Counted from the first letter of the stretch, positions 25,581-47,867 are shown. The stretch is DNA of 64,000 bases from an uncultured Bacteroidales bacterium (GCA_947644715.1 CANSAP010000010.1:718-64717), one strand, 5' to 3'. The notes: a model not told the origin generated them from the letters alone. Numbers and translations: made by a program.

Positions 25581-25699
25581 AGTGCAAAATTAGTAAAAAT
25601 CCCTCAGACGGCGAAAACCATCAGCAGCAAAGTGCGGGAGTCTTGAGGAATCGGAGTGAATATTTTTTTTATAACGTTGCGGGAGTGAAAAAGTATTGT

Positions 25700-25707
25700 T
25701 AACTTTG
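25700..25707 (+). promoter_or_regulatory. -7 promoter box TAACTTTG for ncRNA-like element A
   Basis: Same box and same context (attgNtaactttgcg) as at 45718. Confidence 0.6.
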
Positions 25708-25711
25708 CGGC

Positions 25712-26026
25712 GCTGGCCGACAATGCAGAAGCCCGGTTGCGGGCAAAGCGGGAGGGTTAGCGCGACATACTAAAAGCGTTTACTGACGCACATTCCTGGC
25801 ACTTGGAAATCTGGAAAATTTCAATTGGAGTCAAGAATGCGGCAAGCGGTAGATGTCTTAGTGGATATGTGTATTCTGCCTGAACCGACGCGAGAGCGTG
25901 GGTGTCGGGCGCATAGCATATTCTGCGTGAGGCTTCTGCATGTTTGCTCGTTCTACTCCAATGGGCATTCCAGAGCCTCCAAGTGTGGGACGGGCAACAA
26001 AGTGGCTTCACGCCTTTGTTTTTTCG
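25712..26026 (+). ncRNA. Unclassified structured RNA element, copy A (stand-alone sRNA or cis-regulatory leader)
   Basis: Homologous to 45730-46042. Conservation is not frame-consistent. Shows compensatory changes in several predicted helices and a 3' stem plus U-tract. See findings. Confidence 0.55.
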
Positions 26027-26111
26027 GAACCTTTGGGAGATGTCGTGATTCAGTCGCTTTTTGCAGCGTGAGAACAGAACTTATACATATAACCACTTAA
26101 AATCAAATAAG

Positions 26112-26669
26112 ATGAAAAAAATCATTTCCGCCATCCTGCTGTGTGCCATCGCACTCCTTGGCCTGTCAACCACATCATGCAAACGATTCAAGATTCCCGT
26201 TGGGAAAGTGGCGAGCCACATGTCGTCCGGTTCGCACTCCGGTAGTGAATTGACCGATACAGAGGAACAGCTCCACGGCACCTGGACGACGACATCCACC
26301 GAAACCGAATATGAGGATGGAGAAAAATTTGAGTACAAGACAATTGTTTCAACTTATTACATCAACCATTCGTTTCATACGACAGTAAAATATCAGCAAG
26401 TGTCACCAATGCCGATGACTTTGTTCGTTATCAAATATTCAGGTAAATATCACGCCGATTCCGAATCTCTGACGGAGATTCTCAATGAGGATAGCGTGAG
26501 TGTGGAGTTTGTCCTTAAGGGGGGTGATCCGGAGGATGTGAAAGAGGAGTTCCTCCAGGCTCTGAGAGAGGAAGGAAAGAAAGATGTCTATAAGATTCTG
26601 GAGCTTACAGATGACCGCATGCTCCTTGAGGATGAAGACGGAAGTGTTGGTAAATTTGTGCGGGAGTAA
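26112..26669 (+). CDS. Hypothetical lipoprotein
   Basis: Lipobox MKKIISAILLCAIALLGLSTTSC. No family recognised. Confidence 0.7.
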   Translation: MKKIISAILLCAIALLGLSTTSCKRFKIPVGKVASHMSSGSHSGSELTDTEEQLHGTWTTTSTETEYEDGEKFEYKTIVSTYYINHSFHTTVKYQQVSPMPMTLFVIKYSGKYHADSESLTEILNEDSVSVEFVLKGGDPEDVKEEFLQALREEGKKDVYKILELTDDRMLLEDEDGSVGKFVRE

Positions 26670-26703
26670 TTCCGGCAGCTGTTAAACGCTAATAAGGAAA
26701 CTC

Positions 26704-27234
26704 ATGAACAGAGAGACATATAACGGCGAGGCAAAAGCCTCTTTGCGGAAATTCACCGGTTTGATTCCTCGGGGTCTCAGACATTCAGTATTGGGCTTGT
26801 CTCTGCTCGTTGCAGGTGCGGGCGCATTGACTGCCCGGGCCGCAGAGATAGCAGATATTGAAGAAGAGCGTGTGACTGAGTGCTCCGCAGAAAACACCAC
26901 CCCCGATGCTGAGAAAATCTTTGCAGCCGCAGATCAGCCGGCATCATTTCCCGGGGGCAAAGCGGCTCTGATGCAATGGATAGGCACCAATCTCCGCTAT
27001 CCCGTAAGCGCGCAAGAGAAAGGTGTGCAGGGCAAGGTTGTGGTGAAATTCGTTATAGAAAAAGATGGAAGCATTACGAATCCCACAGTAGTGCGCAGTG
27101 TCAATCAGGATCTTGATAAAGAGGCCATACGCATAGTGCACATGATGCCGAAGTGGGTTCCGGCCAAGATTGACGGCAACGTGGTGCGGTCTTACTGCAC
27201 TTTGCCGATAGGATTCCGTTTGCGGGGCAATTAA
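26704..27234 (+). CDS. TonB C-terminal-domain protein (energy transducer TonB family)
   Basis: PASFPGGKAALMQWIGTNLRYPVSAQEKGVQGKVVVKFVIEKDGSITNPTVVRS... Confidence 0.8.
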   Translation: MNRETYNGEAKASLRKFTGLIPRGLRHSVLGLSLLVAGAGALTARAAEIADIEEERVTECSAENTTPDAEKIFAAADQPASFPGGKAALMQWIGTNLRYPVSAQEKGVQGKVVVKFVIEKDGSITNPTVVRSVNQDLDKEAIRIVHMMPKWVPAKIDGNVVRSYCTLPIGFRLRGN

Positions 27235-43684: not shown

Positions 43685-44929
43685 ATGGCTAAAGTAAAAC
43701 CGTTCCGCGGCCTGCGTCCGCCCAAAGAAATGGTAGAAGAGGTAGTATCACGCCCCTACGATGTGCTGAACTCCGAAGAAGCTCGCGCAGAGGCTGAAGG
43801 TAACCCCAAGAGTCTCTACCACATCATTAAGCCTGAAATTGATTTCGCTCCCGGCTTTGATGAGCATGACCCTGCCGTTTATGACAAGGCTGTTGAGAAT
43901 TTCAATGCTTTCCAGAAGAATGGCTGGCTCGTGCAGGATGAGAAAGACAAGTATTACATCTATGCGCAGACCATGGATGGCCGCACTCAGTATGGCTTCG
44001 TAGTAGCTGCATGGGTTGACGACTACATGGAGGGTCGCATCAAAAAGCATGAGCTTACCCGCCGCGACAAGGAGGAGGACCGCATGAAGCATGTGCGCAT
44101 CAACAACGCCAACGTTGAGCCGGTGTTCTTCGCTTTCCCCGACAATGAACCCTTGCAGAAAATCATCGATACCGTAACCGCCGGTAAGCCCGAATATGAC
44201 TTCGTTGCTCCCGACGGCTTCGGCCACACATTCTGGGTAATCGAGGATGAGGCCATGATTGAGGAAATCACCCGCCAGTTCGCAGCCATACCCAACCTCT
44301 ACATCGCCGACGGCCACCATCGCAGTGCCGCCGCAGCCCTCGTAGGCGCCGAGAAGGCCAAGAACAATCCCAACCATAAGGGCGACGAGGAATACAACTA
44401 CTTCCTGGCAGTTGCTTTCCCCGCATCTCACCTCAAGATTATTGACTACAACCGCGTGGTGCGTGACCTCAACGGCCTCACCTCCGAAGAATTCCTTCAG
44501 AAGGTTGCCGAGAACTTCGAAGTGAAGAAGATGGGCAAGGAGACTTATCATCCCACCGGCCTGCACAACTTCTCTCTCTATCTCGACGGCGAATGGTATT
44601 CACTGACCGCCAAGCCCGGCACCTACAATGACCAGGACCCCATCGGTGTGCTCGACGTGACCGTAAGCTCCGACCTCATCCTGCGCGACATCCTCGGCAT
44701 CACCGACCTGCGCAGCGACAAGCGCATCGACTTCGTAGGCGGCATCCGCGGCCTTGAGGAACTGAAGCGCCGTGTTGACAGCGGCGAGATGAAGATGGCT
44801 CTGGCACTCTATCCCGTGACCATGGACCAGCTCATCAACATAGCCGACACCGGCAACATCATGCCGCCGAAGACCACCTGGTTCGAGCCCAAACTCCGCT
44901 CCGGCCTCGTGATCCACAAGCTCGACTGA
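43685..44929 (+). CDS. DUF1015 domain protein
   Basis: MAKVKPFRGLRPP...SRPYDVL...YIADGHHR... Typical DUF1015 N-terminus and core. Confidence 0.8.
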   Translation: MAKVKPFRGLRPPKEMVEEVVSRPYDVLNSEEARAEAEGNPKSLYHIIKPEIDFAPGFDEHDPAVYDKAVENFNAFQKNGWLVQDEKDKYYIYAQTMDGRTQYGFVVAAWVDDYMEGRIKKHELTRRDKEEDRMKHVRINNANVEPVFFAFPDNEPLQKIIDTVTAGKPEYDFVAPDGFGHTFWVIEDEAMIEEITRQFAAIPNLYIADGHHRSAAAALVGAEKAKNNPNHKGDEEYNYFLAVAFPASHLKIIDYNRVVRDLNGLTSEEFLQKVAENFEVKKMGKETYHPTGLHNFSLYLDGEWYSLTAKPGTYNDQDPIGVLDVTVSSDLILRDILGITDLRSDKRIDFVGGIRGLEELKRRVDSGEMKMALALYPVTMDQLINIADTGNIMPPKTTWFEPKLRSGLVIHKLD

Positions 44930-44932
44930 TTC

Positions 44933-45084
44933 TCTTGAGAGTAATGAGAGAAATGAGAGTTTTGAGAGGTATAAGAGAATTGAGAGGAATAAGAGGAATA
45001 ACCTCGCCGACCATTCTCGCAAGTGCCAATCTCTCTCAGTTCTCTCATTACTCTCAAAACTCTTAAAAACCCTCAAACCTCTCA
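44933..45084. repeat. Two inverted arrays of 9-nt units (core TGAGAG / CTCTCA) forming a long imperfect palindrome
   Basis: Seven head-to-tail 9-mers run from 44933 to 44995 (tcttgagag, taatgagag, aaatgagag, ttttgagag, gtataagag, aattgagag, gaataagag). The mirror array spans 45031-45084. 44935-44952 is the exact reverse complement of 45040-45057. Confidence 0.85.
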
Positions 45085-45117
45085 CTACACCACAATCACT
45101 AACTTAAACTCACGACC

Positions 45118-45675
45118 ATGGGGCAGATAATCGAGCACACAGGTAACTACCGGAATTGGAATGTTTACCGCAAGTCAGTGATTGTCTGCGACCTTACAGA
45201 GATATTCATTACGCGCTTCCTTGGCAAAGGGAATCGCACAGTCGACCAAATGCGCCAGGCAGCCCGCTCATGCAAGCAGAACATAGTCGAAGGGTCTTGT
45301 GCCGCATCTGTGTCGCGGGAGACTGAAATCAAACTCACCGGAGTTGCCAAAGCCTCACTGCAAGAATTAGCGGAGGATTACAGGGATTACTTGCGACAGC
45401 ACTCGTTGTCGCTATGGGCGGTATCCGACCCTCGAGTGCACCGTACCCGCGCTTATCTACGCGCTCATGATGACCCGGAGACCGTCGTGTCAACATGCAG
45501 AAACAGCACTGACGAAGTCATAGCCAACATCATGCTAACCCTGATTTCCCAATTGGACTACATGTTGCGAGCCGTAATAGAACGGGCGGAAACGCTCTTC
45601 ATACAGGAAGGAGGCATCCGCGAAAAAATGTCAGCCACCCGCCGCCAGTGGCGCAAAGACCATCTCGGCTATTAG
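45118..45675 (+). CDS. Four-helix-bundle protein (23S rRNA-intervening-sequence-protein-like, with C-terminal suffix domain)
   Basis: NYRNWNVYRKS...RQAARSCKQNIVEGS...ASLQELAEDYRDYL... Confidence 0.7.
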   Translation: MGQIIEHTGNYRNWNVYRKSVIVCDLTEIFITRFLGKGNRTVDQMRQAARSCKQNIVEGSCAASVSRETEIKLTGVAKASLQELAEDYRDYLRQHSLSLWAVSDPRVHRTRAYLRAHDDPETVVSTCRNSTDEVIANIMLTLISQLDYMLRAVIERAETLFIQEGGIREKMSATRRQWRKDHLGY

Positions 45676-45717
45676 TATAAAAAAGAAAAGATATTTTGCT
45701 GAGTTGGCAATTATTGC

Positions 45718-45725
45718 TAACTTTG
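45718..45725 (+). promoter_or_regulatory. -7 promoter box TAACTTTG for ncRNA-like element B
   Basis: Identical box and context to the one at 25700. Confidence 0.6.
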
Positions 45726-45729
45726 CGAC

Positions 45730-46042
45730 ATTACCACATCGCAGAAGCCCGAGAGAGGGGAAATGCGGGTGGGGAAAATAAAGGAAAGCGTTTATCTGCG
45801 CTCATACTTGACGTTCTGAAATCCGGTAAATTTCAATCGCAGTCAAGAATGTGGCAACGGTAGATGCCTTGTGGATATGTATATTTACACATTGGCTGAA
45901 TGTCGCGAGGCATTTGGCTTATGTGTCTTGCATATTCTGCGTGAGGCTTCTGCGGGTTGCTCTTCTACTGCGATGGGCTTACCGGAGCCTCAGAACGTGA
46001 GAAGGGCAATACGGTATGGCTCCTCACGCTTTTTGTGTTTTC
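45730..46042 (+). ncRNA. Unclassified structured RNA element, copy B
   Basis: Homologous to 25712-26026, with the same helices and a 3' stem plus U-tract (46022-46041). See findings. Confidence 0.55.
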
Positions 46043-46118
46043 AGATTAGCCTGCGAGGGGAGACCGGAGGCAAAACTAACCTCGACACGAAACGTGTCGG
46101 CAAACTTCAGGCAATTCT

Positions 46119-47867
46119 ATGAAGAAACAAATGATGATGGTAAAAGTCTGCCTCGCAGTGTGCTTGGCGATGCTTATTGCAGCTTGTAGCCGGCAGGATG
46201 CATCATTAGCTGATGCCATTGACCTTATCCCGGTCAGAACCACCAAGGATGGTAATTGGAGCATGATGAATAAAAAGGGAGAGATTGTATATGACTCCGA
46301 GTTCAAAAACGAACCTACACTGTCGGTCAACGGCATCTTCTCCGTTCAGGAGGGGGAGGGCTACACGCTCTATTCTTCGGCCGGCGATAAGCCCAAGGCG
46401 CTGTCAGGATGCGACAATCTTAAGGGAGTCGGCATCTGTGTCGACGGACTCATCCCTATCGTCAAACCTAAGGAACGCATTAGCGTAGTGGATGCAAGCG
46501 GCAAGAAACAATTTGAGCTCGGCCCGATTAAGGATGTGGAGGTTGAGCGTTGCGTCGCCCGCTACTTCGACGGCCTGCTTATGGTATGTACTGAAGAGGG
46601 GAAATGGGGATACGTTGACACATCCGGCAAAGTTGTCATAGAACCTAAATATGTTGACGCATATCCTTTCTCTGAAGGTCTTGCCGTTGTGCAGATAGGC
46701 GGGATTGAGGGTAAGGAAGATTATTATGAAGTGATTGACAAGAGCGGGAAAACAGTTGTAAAACTGAAACCGGATCAGCATCCCATATCAGGGCTCATGT
46801 ACCAAGATGGTCGGTTGCTGATAGAGCGTGATGACCAACTGAGCTTTATGGACACTAAGGGCGAAATGAAGAAAGTGCCGGGCAAGGCAGAGTCTGTACT
46901 TGGGTGGAATGACAAATACATCGTCTATACCAACGAGGAGGGACAACGCGGTGTGATGGATTTCTCCGGTGAGGTGGTAGTTCGTCCGAAATATGAGCAT
47001 CTCGGTGTTATGCCAGACAACTCCGGTTTCTATGCTGAAAAAGATGACCACACCTTTGTAATTCTTGACTCTAAGGGCGAGGTAGTACGCACCTTGGATG
47101 ATTACGAAAGCTTACAAAACCATGGAGACTTTGGCTGGATTGTTAAAGAGGGTTCGCATTACACTCTCCTTGACGAAGATTTCAAGCAGAAGGGTAAGGA
47201 TGATTTTTACGACTATGGCACGAAATTAGCTTCCGATGGTATCCTTGTAAGTGACTATTTCAGTGTGGAACAGGCTGTGAACGCGCTTGTCTCCAAAATT
47301 GATGGTAATGGTGTCAAGGGATATCAGATAGGAGCGTCGGCTGCTGCTATATTTAAGGACAAGGAATTGGACCCGGCGAATTTTACTCAGGGAGTTAGGT
47401 TCGAAATACCGGAAGTCTCCACATATCGTTCCAAATATGCTATTGAAGGAGAAGCCTGGTTTTCGGCTGCAATTGCTGATTATAGTTATGAACGTCATTA
47501 CTATTGGAATCCTGAAAGTAAGTTAAACTCAATTAATTTAACGCTTAAGTCAGATTATGAGTTGGGAGCCGAGGCTTGTAATCTCATAGCCAAGCATATG
47601 TCAGCCAAGGGATACCAAATCATAAAAAAAGGCGAGGCAAAGAGCGGAAGTGCCTATGTAGCTTTTATGAAGAAAGGCAATACTTACTTGATTGTGGTTG
47701 TTAATAGAGACAATGGAAAGGAAGTGACCCTCGGCTTGGCGGACAATTCAGTGGTAGATGAGGCGTATGTAAAAAGCCAATTTGAAGGTGAGGCGGATTA
47801 TGAACCGGTAACAGAGACTGAGGCCGTGGTGGCAGAAGATGTCCCGGCGGTTGATACTGCAATATAA
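46119..47867 (+). CDS. WG-repeat (KWG) containing lipoprotein
   Basis: Lipobox LAMLIAACS. Repeated GKWGYVDTSGKVVIEPKY..A.PFSEGLA units. Confidence 0.8.
   Translation: MKKQMMMVKVCLAVCLAMLIAACSRQDASLADAIDLIPVRTTKDGNWSMMNKKGEIVYDSEFKNEPTLSVNGIFSVQEGEGYTLYSSAGDKPKALSGCDNLKGVGICVDGLIPIVKPKERISVVDASGKKQFELGPIKDVEVERCVARYFDGLLMVCTEEGKWGYVDTSGKVVIEPKYVDAYPFSEGLAVVQIGGIEGKEDYYEVIDKSGKTVVKLKPDQHPISGLMYQDGRLLIERDDQLSFMDTKGEMKKVPGKAESVLGWNDKYIVYTNEEGQRGVMDFSGEVVVRPKYEHLGVMPDNSGFYAEKDDHTFVILDSKGEVVRTLDDYESLQNHGDFGWIVKEGSHYTLLDEDFKQKGKDDFYDYGTKLASDGILVSDYFSVEQAVNALVSKIDGNGVKGYQIGASAAAIFKDKELDPANFTQGVRFEIPEVSTYRSKYAIEGEAWFSAAIADYSYERHYYWNPESKLNSINLTLKSDYELGAEACNLIAKHMSAKGYQIIKKGEAKSGSAYVAFMKKGNTYLIVVVNRDNGKEVTLGLADNSVVDEAYVKSQFEGEADYEPVTETEAVVAEDVPAVDTAI

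Follow-up and report, generated by a model that had tools for sequence, protein, structure and literature searches.

The element analysed here belongs to a new and widespread family of structured RNAs of gut Muribaculaceae, about 320 nt long, which is unusual in its size, architecture and regulon and of a mechanistic kind that is already known. Two mutually exclusive folds are recorded in the covariation of the family, a long rod and a second fold in which a conserved stem directly precedes a U-run. The explanation that we favour, with moderate confidence, is that the element acts in cis as a 5' leader with conditional termination, the choice between the two folds being biased by a putative effector. 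Muribaculaceae belong to the dominant bacteria of the mouse gut and occur in human gut samples as well, and to our knowledge almost nothing is known about RNA-based regulation in them.

The analysis covered the window, i.e., the whole stretch of 64,000 nucleotides from an uncultured Bacteroidales bacterium, and the members of the family collected from other genomes and from metagenomes. An earlier note on this DNA had proposed a structured non-coding element with a promoter of its own, a terminator-like 3' end and no recognised RNA family. The sequence features that it listed are all present on re-reading: the TAACTTTG box at 25700-25707, the hairpin GCCCG-GTTG-CGGGC at 25731-44, ATGCAGAAGCC (25723-33) complementary to GGCTTCTGCAT (25931-41), GAAAT...ATTTC at 25806-22, GGATATG (25863-69) with CATATTC (25917-23), TTGCTC (25944-49) with GGGCAA (25992-97), GCGTGAGG (25925-32) pairing with CTTCACGC (26006-13) and followed by CTTTGTTTTTTC, and the lipoprotein ATG at 26112.

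Two copies in the window

Exactly two copies are found in the window by nhmmer with the family HMM, both on the + strand, at 25713-26024 and 45733-46040; they are referred to here as copy A (25700-26026) and copy B (45718-46042). Their homology, which had been reported for 45730-46042, is upheld by blastn (72% identity, E 1e-35), and nhmmer agrees. The MFE z-scores against shuffled sequence are -8.0 and -8.5 for the two copies, and the differences between them are fully compensated at 6, 2 and 2 positions in the rod helices Ha, Hb and Hc, respectively; structure in both copies is far beyond chance.

Copy A is flanked by a DUF4924 gene on the minus strand and by a lipoprotein gene. Its candidate promoter (25675-25707, + strand) comprises a -33-like (G)TTG at 25677-25679 and the -7 box TAACTTTG at 25700-25707, which would place the transcription start at about 25712-25714. 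The spacer to the downstream gene (26026-26111, + strand) is longer than usual (85 nt) and has no clear second hairpin, only GGGAGAU at 26035-41 being left as a degenerate remnant of the second module described below. The downstream unit (26112-27234, + strand) begins with the lipoprotein gene (185 aa, 26112-26669), for which no Pfam match was obtained, and continues with a gene for a TonB_C protein (26704-27234).

Copy B, also on the + strand, lies between the gene of a 185-aa protein and that of a 582-aa WG-repeat lipoprotein. It has the -7 box TAACTTTG at 45718-25, and its RNA is predicted to run from about 45731 to 46042. The rod helices fall at 45811-19/45990-98 (Ha), 45822-28/45980-86 (Hb) and 45836-43/45967-74 (Hc), and the terminator stem is formed by GCGUGAGG (45939-46) with CCUCACGC (46022-29), followed by UUUUUGUGUUUU. 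Here the second module is intact (46049-46071, + strand), with a GCCU/AGGC hairpin and the loop GCGAGGGGAGACCGG, and the WG-repeat lipoprotein ORF (46119-47867) begins 48 nt past it. The genes downstream of the two copies are unrelated to each other, and no recombinase adjoins either copy in the window.

Family, hosts and novelty

More than 230 members were collected from gut metagenomes and from Muribaculaceae, Barnesiella and Bacteroidales MAGs by scanning with the near-invariant 19-mer TTCTGCGTGAGGCTTCTGC (25921-25939). The scan returned at least 120 stretches in metagenome contigs, at least 119 in species-representative genomes and 4 in IMG/VR, 3 of which are real. About 115 of the 124 viral and metagenome instances that were extracted align over 250-335 nt at 70-80% identity. 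Among the matches listed, the Muribaculaceae hosts are Sangeribacter, Paramuribaculum, Duncaniella, Muribaculum and Amulumruptor, and further hosts are Barnesiella and MAGs labelled Porphyromonadaceae, Bacteroidales or Bacteroides; one of the listed hosts is cultured, namely Muribaculaceae bacterium Isolate-104 (HZI) (RIBJ01000037.1, locus L215).

Several genomes contributed more than one locus to the 19-mer scan. The fetched 8-kb pieces contain a few extra copies at distances of kilobases, some of them arranged back to back and divergently; as a rough estimate, a genome may hold copies of the order of ten or more. The paralogues are old (70-80% identical) and scattered among housekeeping genes. 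Matches to the proteins of the window came from metagenome contigs only, and none of the fetched genome loci is more than 83% identical.

The absence of a recognised RNA family is confirmed by Rfam 15 (4227 models), which gives no match at gathering score over the whole 64-kb window. At E<=10 only chance matches appear, outside the element or marginal to it (NsiR4, E 4.9; Ocean-VII, E 8; ylbH, E 0.43, at 16 bits against a threshold of 50 bits). No match to the element was found by blastn in the PLSDB plasmids or the INPHARED phages, and no description of it was found in the literature on Muribaculaceae RNA motifs, on Muribaculum sRNAs and on the core sequence, or in a 50-genome ncRNA survey.

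Promoter, strand and non-coding nature

Of 138 unique members, 129 carry the motif TAnnTTTG immediately before the conserved region, and a conserved TTG precedes this motif by some 21-23 nt, at the -33 position. Judged by this motif, the element probably has its own promoter of the Bacteroidota, sigma-A(Bfr) type, as the earlier note had suggested, and it is presumably transcribed from there.

G·U pairs exceed A·C combinations by a wide margin in all helices (433 vs 63 in the rod, 129 vs 2 in the terminator stem, and 127 vs 10 in the alternative helix Halt), which means that the structure acts as + strand RNA; such an asymmetry is unlike the prediction for DNA hairpins or for the opposite strand. 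The idea of an integron attC site or gene-cassette array was likewise discarded, given this same excess of G·U and the dispersal of the copies as single units among housekeeping genes.

A coding element was considered and rejected: there is no conserved ORF, the indels are not multiples of three, 3-nt periodicity is absent, and variability by codon position is flat (0.205, 0.191 and 0.222). Together with the conserved helices, this bears out the previous description of a structured non-coding element. A uORF in the spacer was also rejected, as the AUG of 'AUGCCAA' is not conserved.

The rod and the other domains of the fold

Covariation was scored on an alignment of 124 non-redundant members (<92% identity) with a two-sided filter; without this filter, noise from G·U pairs overwhelms the signal. 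For P1 and the terminator stem, consensus columns were used, copy A being misaligned there by 2 columns. Overall, 995 double-change cells were counted vs 339 in shuffles, and none of 500 shuffles reached 995. When the 3' partners were slid by one to three columns, pairing fell from 89% to 33-44%.

A long rod, in which 25799-25847 pairs with 25942-25986 of copy A, is strongly supported by covariation. It is a structure of about 190 nt with about 24 bp, the 5' strands of which lie within 25793-25847 and most of the 3' strands within 25955-25986, both on the + strand. Helix Ha (25799-25807 with 25978-25986) is 97.7% paired and has both sides changed in 8 of its 9 pairs; the corresponding values are 98.5% and 6 of 7 for Hb (25810-16 with 25968-74), 96.2% and 8 of 8 for Hc (25824-31 with 25955-62), and 96.1% and 3 of 7 for Hd (25841-47 with 25942-48). 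Between Hc and Hd, a GAAUG/CGUUC extension (GAAUG at 25835-39) is 96.7% paired over two countable pairs.

The 5' domain (25712-25761, + strand) has moderate support from covariation. Its 5' end (family consensus GCAGACCG; GCUGGCCG in copy A, 25712-19) can pair with CGGUC (CGGUU in copy A, 25734-38) or with GGUYNGC (25755-61). The GACCG/CGGUC helix is 87% paired, with 35 double-change cells vs 8.6 in shuffled data, and the alternative outer helix is 70-78% paired. The domain also contains P2, UGC/GCG (25724-26 with 25748-50; 87% paired), and the P3 hairpin GCCCG-GUUG-CGGGC (25731-44; 77% paired). Downstream of it lies the highly conserved P4 hairpin GCGUU-UACU-GACGC (25776-25789, + strand; consensus AAAGCGUUUACUCGACGC), which is 95% paired and shows one-sided changes only.

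The apical domain (25848-25941, + strand) consists of a conserved GGUAGAUG, helix He, a variable hairpin and the 19-mer. He (GGAUAUG/CAUAUUC, 25863-69 with 25917-23) is 97% paired, again with changes on one side only. In the variable hairpin, the apex (ACGC/GCGU, 25888-91 with 25896-99) is 93.9% paired and covaries in 4 of 4 pairs. The near-invariant 19-mer, as RNA UUCUGCGUGAGGCUUCUGC (25921-25939), includes the 5' arm of the terminator stem, GCGUGAGG (25925-32). In addition, CAGAAGCC (25726-33) is complementary to GGCUUCUG (25931-38) and 98.2% pairable, a pairing that is a pseudoknot relative to the rod; 55 one-sided changes keep it as wobbles vs 18 unpaired cells, and there are no double changes. 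This pairing, GGAUAUG/CAUAUUC and the terminator stem hardly vary, so that little covariation evidence can come from them.

The switch strand and the terminator fold

The second fold competes with the rod for a 12-nt switch strand, GUUUGCUCGUUC (25942-25953, + strand), whose partner is 25835-25847 in the rod and 25988-25997 in the terminator fold. The 3' domain (25988-26025, + strand) is made up of the 3' arm of Halt, the 3' arm of the terminator stem and the U-run. Halt, UUGCUCGUUC (25944-53) with GGACGGGCAA (25988-97), is 97.5% paired and covaries in 6 of 10 pairs. The terminator stem has 8 bp, GCGUGAGG (25925-32) with CUUCACGC (26006-13; (U)CUCACGC), and is 98.1% paired, its C-to-U and A-to-G changes keeping the pairing. 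It abuts the U-run (26014-26025), where the RNA would have its 3' end, and at least 5 T in the 8 nt after the stem are found in 109 of 118 members. The description of the 3' end as terminator-like is thereby sustained. A generic terminator scan makes no call here because the loop that the stem encloses is 73 nt long.

Both pairings of the switch strand are under selection. Alignment columns 411/412 covary with columns 251/250 in Hd (GC 91/AU 23; AU 72/GC 30) and also with columns 467/466 in Halt (CG 91/UA 8; UA 65/CG 31). Hd and Halt cannot coexist, since they overlap by 5 nt and links of a single nucleotide (1 nt) fix their ends to the two opposite ends of the rod. The two folds are mutually exclusive, and both are visible in the covariation.

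In the terminator fold, the 5' half is paired with itself: UUCCUGGC (25793-800) with GUCAAGAA (25830-37), 96.6% pairable, and within it the GAAAU/AUUUC hairpin (25806-22), 86.9% paired. The rod is the MFE structure in 80% of members, and the terminator fold, when forced, is less stable by 14.7 kcal/mol on average; with the rod so much the more stable, the choice between the folds would be kinetic or driven by a factor. Folding of successive prefixes of copy A gives, in order, a local hairpin at the 5' side, the apical domain, and the rod once the 3' strands exist; this local hairpin is also what the nascent 5' half adopts as its MFE structure. By these energetics and prefix folds, the multi-helix fold drawn in the earlier note corresponds to the metastable, terminator-forming state. 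Its 3'-domain helices are conserved; the dominant rod had been missed, and the fold as listed is not the ground state, its GAAAT/ATTTC hairpin and 3' domain being parts of the competing state, about 15 kcal/mol less stable. It is possible in principle for the terminator stem to form as a long-range pseudoknot beside the rod, in which case termination would be constitutive.

Downstream genes and a second module

The genes that the element precedes are very diverse, and most encode exported or membrane proteins. Within 450 nt, a co-oriented ORF that starts with ATG and codes for 60 aa or more is found in 207 of the 217 full-length members with enough flank, and the spacing has a sharp mode, with the start codon 40-59 nt past the model end in 122 members. 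Between the U-run and the ATG, TAnnTTTG occurs in only 2 of 138 members and is absent in the other 136. Among the downstream proteins, the commonest Pfam family is the BspA-type LRR (18 of 148), other families being Big_2, FG-GAP, peptidases C10 and S8, and DUFs, and most have no Pfam match. For proteins of at least 150 aa, an N-terminal hydrophobic stretch, scored as signal or membrane segment, is present in 82% of the downstream proteins vs 41% of other ORFs of the same loci (odds ratio 6.8, p = 6e-17). The genes have no pathway in common that would suggest a ligand. The earlier proposal of a leader for a lipoprotein-TonB unit specifically is therefore too narrow in view of the variety of genes that follow across the family.

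The spacer often contains a second module, in which a AUAAACCAAUC-like stretch is followed by a hairpin whose stem is variable and whose loop, GNGAGNY, is purine-rich. This loop motif occurs in 107 of 193 members vs 23 of 194 shuffles, a stem of 5 bp or more is formed in 61% vs 33% of controls, and the median distance from the end of the hairpin to the ATG is 14 nt. At different loci, homologous genes are found again downstream of the leader. Two loci (L089 and L152) share their upstream flank and have leaders that are 97% identical, the homology stopping exactly at the U-run, past which different modules of second hairpin plus gene follow.

A proposed conditional-termination leader and its alternatives

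The earlier note had left the choice between an sRNA and a conditional-termination leader open, and the leader is now favoured by the dual covariation and by the co-oriented ORFs at a fixed short distance. In the mechanism that we propose, the leader would be transcribed from its own sigma-A(Bfr)-type promoter. In the rod state, 25799-25847 would pair with 25942-25986, with GCGUGAGG buried in the apical part and CUUCACGC unpaired; since no hairpin would then abut the U-run, RNA polymerase is proposed to read into the downstream gene. In the terminator state, the 5' half would stay self-folded (UUCCUGGC/GUCAAGAA plus the GAAAU/AUUUC hairpin), 25942-25953 would take 25988-25997 as its partner, and GCGUGAGG would pair with CUUCACGC beside the U-run, so that transcription would stop and an RNA of about 315 nt would be released. 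The 5' half is the first to fold, so that the choice would be made while transcription is under way. A putative effector, which could be a small ligand, a protein or an RNA, would bias the choice of fold, possibly at the 5' domain or through the pairing of GGCUUCUGC with CAGAAGCC vs GUAGAUGCC. Once released, the RNA would be expected to refold into the rod, and it could have a function in trans as well.

Three other explanations have to be weighed, and none of them accounts at once for a switch strand that covaries with two partners, for the U-run and for the fixed position before an ORF. The first, which we regard as unlikely, is a stand-alone and abundant rod-shaped sRNA of about 315 nt that has a constitutive terminator and acts in trans, by base-pairing or by protein sequestration, the downstream genes being mere neighbours expressed by leak-through or from unrecognised promoters. 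It would account for the promoter motif and the terminator stem with U-run that the element has of its own, for the great stability of the rod, for the several copies per genome, as in the multicopy FopS sRNAs of Bacteroides (PMC11697453), and for a few members with a simple terminator and no nearby ORF (the phage-junction and 'CTCACGTATTCTATG' classes). However, the position of the element is tied to its neighbour, most members having a co-oriented ORF at 40-59 nt with no promoter motif in between, and the conserved second module joins the U-run to the ATG. Selection has also kept Halt, a competitor of the rod that a terminator acting constitutively could do without. This explanation does not exclude the leader, as a terminated leader could act in trans as well.

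The second, for which we see a still smaller chance, is a constitutive structured 5' UTR that does not switch, the rod serving to stabilise or process the mRNA. The rod might, for example, be cleaved by RNase III, for which a long near-perfect duplex is a plausible substrate, hairpin 2 might be a protective 5' stem-loop, and translation might be tuned; the alternative helices would be by-products of sequence mimicry. The dominance of the rod, which is the MFE structure in 80% of members and some 15 kcal/mol more stable than its alternative, agrees with a UTR of this kind, as do the long duplex itself and the place of hairpin 2 about 14 nt before the ATG. A purely constitutive UTR accounts neither for a Halt that covaries independently in 6 of 10 pairs nor for a terminator stem that abuts a U-run in 109 of 118 members.

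The third, a recombination or mobile-element site at the DNA level (a cassette junction, an att site or a MITE with hairpins in single-stranded DNA), is very improbable: a temperate phage family does appear to use the central ~140 nt as attachment site, the L089/L152 homology does stop exactly at the U-run with unrelated modules behind it, and the downstream genes are diverse and accessory-looking, but the excess of G·U over A·C in every helix indicates strand-specific RNA pairing, the promoter motif and the U-run are conserved, the paralogues are old, dispersed and not in arrays, no recombinase stands beside the window copies, and the plasmid and phage record collections contain no match.

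Beyond the conditional-termination leader itself, we put forward a broader reading only tentatively: the element may represent a new class of large RNA sensor (~320 nt plus the second hairpin), present in many copies per genome, by which a regulon of fast-evolving surface and secreted proteins of Muribaculaceae would be placed under one post-initiation signal through a kinetic switch between rod and terminator. More speculatively, the second hairpin might couple read-through to translation. Both the terminator's 3' arm and the 3' tail of 16S rRNA, which is rich in pyrimidines, are complementary to its purine-rich loop (e.g., GAGGUGA), and the coupling might be made by ribosomes with an exposed anti-Shine-Dalgarno. 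Initiation based on Shine-Dalgarno pairing is largely lacking in the phylum of the hosts, so if true, such coupling between loop and ribosome would be an unusual mechanism for the phylum.

Comparison with known systems and significance

The closest parallels are attenuation riboswitches and leaders such as c-di-GMP-I/GEMM, T-box, PyrR and LicT/RAT. The element resembles them in being a 5' leader with what is probably its own promoter, in having a conserved sensor-like part, and in its exclusive antiterminator and terminator pairings on one strand, with a stem and then a U-run; as with GEMM and T-box, many copies per genome stand before different genes. It differs from them in having no match in Rfam 15 and in being much larger (~320 nt), with a long regular rod as the dominant structure. 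Its antiterminator would be the whole rod, far more stable than the terminator, the genes behind it tend to share a putative export or surface location, not a metabolic pathway, and a second hairpin module is inserted between the U-run and the start codon. A T-box in particular gave no match even at E<=10, and the downstream genes are unrelated to amino-acid metabolism.

The FopS/GibS RNAs of Bacteroidaceae are trans-acting, seed-pairing sRNAs of 65-70 nt with a conserved 5' seed (R1'); they are paralogous and multicopy, have sigma-A(Bfr) promoters, are linked to the control of cell-surface proteins and have sequence that also occurs in phage (PMC11697453). The element is similar in being a multicopy Bacteroidales RNA with a promoter motif of the same type, a putative link to surface proteins and sequence in phage. 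In contrast, it is about 315 nt long, is found in Muribaculaceae and their relatives, lies directly upstream of and co-oriented with a gene, and has a two-state terminator design; the two are set apart here by description (length), not by sequence. With 6S RNA it shares a long imperfect rod and an apparent promoter and terminator of its own. Unlike 6S RNA, it is multicopy, with two copies in 64 kb, stands at a fixed position upstream of ORFs, has an extra 5' domain and shows no evident central bubble resembling an open promoter; the 6S models of Rfam 15 give no match even at E<=10.

A multicopy, strongly covarying leader of about 320 nt that is absent from Rfam would rank among the larger orphan cis-regulatory RNAs. 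The BspA-type adhesins, lipoproteins, proteases and unannotated exported proteins encoded behind it would point to a shared layer of control for the variable cell surface, which bears on colonisation, immune recognition and interaction with phages. The element is also a clean natural example of a two-state RNA, with both states recorded in covariation. Because cultured hosts exist, the prediction is directly testable.

A phage attachment site within the RNA

The attachment site of a temperate phage family appears to be the core of the RNA, which covers model positions ~99-240 (about 25806-25940 in copy A). The evidence concerns loci of the family; both window copies are intact. One IMG/VR contig (locus L021) carries the core only, adjoining a tyrosine integrase gene, and is attP-like. 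At eight loci, the same integrase (88-97% identity) lies beside 5'-truncated copies in which the host 3' domain and gene are kept. In a complementary class, the host promoter and 5' domain are followed by phage sequence, including a tail tape-measure-like gene.

The arrangement is like that of attB sites in tRNA and tmRNA genes, in that a phage holds a copy of the ~140-nt RNA core next to a tyrosine integrase and attL/attR-like junctions are found among the members. It differs in that the target is a putative regulatory leader, not a tRNA or tmRNA, and in that the shared core is internal (model ~99-240), not the 3' end of a gene. Integration of a phage into a regulatory leader would be an unusual case.

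Possible gene exchange behind the leader

Two of the fetched loci that carry family members, L089 (9418-11218) and L152 (reverse strand around 4703), have an upstream flank in common with 88% identity, and their leaders are 97% identical. The U-run, that is, the T-rich 3' end after the terminator stem, is the exact end of this homology; beyond it, the second hairpins, which lie between the U-run and the downstream ATG, differ and the genes are unrelated. The leader and the unit formed by the second hairpin and its gene therefore behave as separable modules, a hint that genes behind the leader may be replaced in a cassette-like manner. In the window (copy B; 43685-46042) as well as in other species (L042:341-4640 and L108), a family member is preceded by a DUF1015 gene, which shows 77% nucleotide identity. 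Despite this common gene, the one behind the leader differs, being a 582-aa WG-repeat lipoprotein in the window versus a ~1650-aa protein in L042 and L108.

Family members also occur in pairs. At L205:3849-5879 and at L247:4202-5016, two members stand back to back in divergent orientation, with 250 nt to 1.4 kb between their promoters; each member faces its own gene.

Structural variation of the element

At window 46049-46071 and in the equivalent spacers of about half of the family, the second hairpin has a purine-rich loop (GAGGUGAGCC, GGGAGUCC or GAGAGCC). This loop is complementary to the terminator 3' arm region GGCUCUCAC and also to the 3' tail of 16S rRNA, which is pyrimidine-rich. At the 3' end of the element, a sub-class of six loci (L163, L253, L040, L052, L060, and L109) has TATTCTATGTTAAWTTCCAAATAATTTTGGGAATTTTTTT, a simple terminator hairpin, after CTCACG. 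Because the contigs end ~120-145 nt beyond this hairpin in four of the six (L163, L253, L040, and L060), a junction with a repeated element is suggested there. In the 5' domain, about a fifth of the members have an extra hairpin of ~35 nt inserted after GGGU (columns 85-115 of A3, the alignment of 124 members), for which copy A has no counterpart; variable-length stems of this kind are typical of structured RNAs. No Rfam match at gathering score was obtained in the whole window (1-64000), so, apart from the two unannotated elements, the 64-kb stretch lacks known RNA families, be they riboswitch, tRNA-like or housekeeping.

Association with integrative elements

The most conserved ~140 nt of the leader (equivalent to window 25806-25940) also serve as the att core of a temperate phage or integrative element, which encodes a tyrosine integrase. 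The core and the integrase occur together at L021:373-2170, while other loci represent the integrase side (L153, L095, L128, L134, L034, L068, L051, and L144) or the other side of the junction (L022, L058, L118, L121, L180, and L237). The resulting arrangements around the leader core are attP-like, attR-like and attL-like. The phage-side junction ends with AAAAGAGGTCGnnTGACCTCTTTTTTGTTAC, and a PhageMin_Tail ORF lies downstream in L118.
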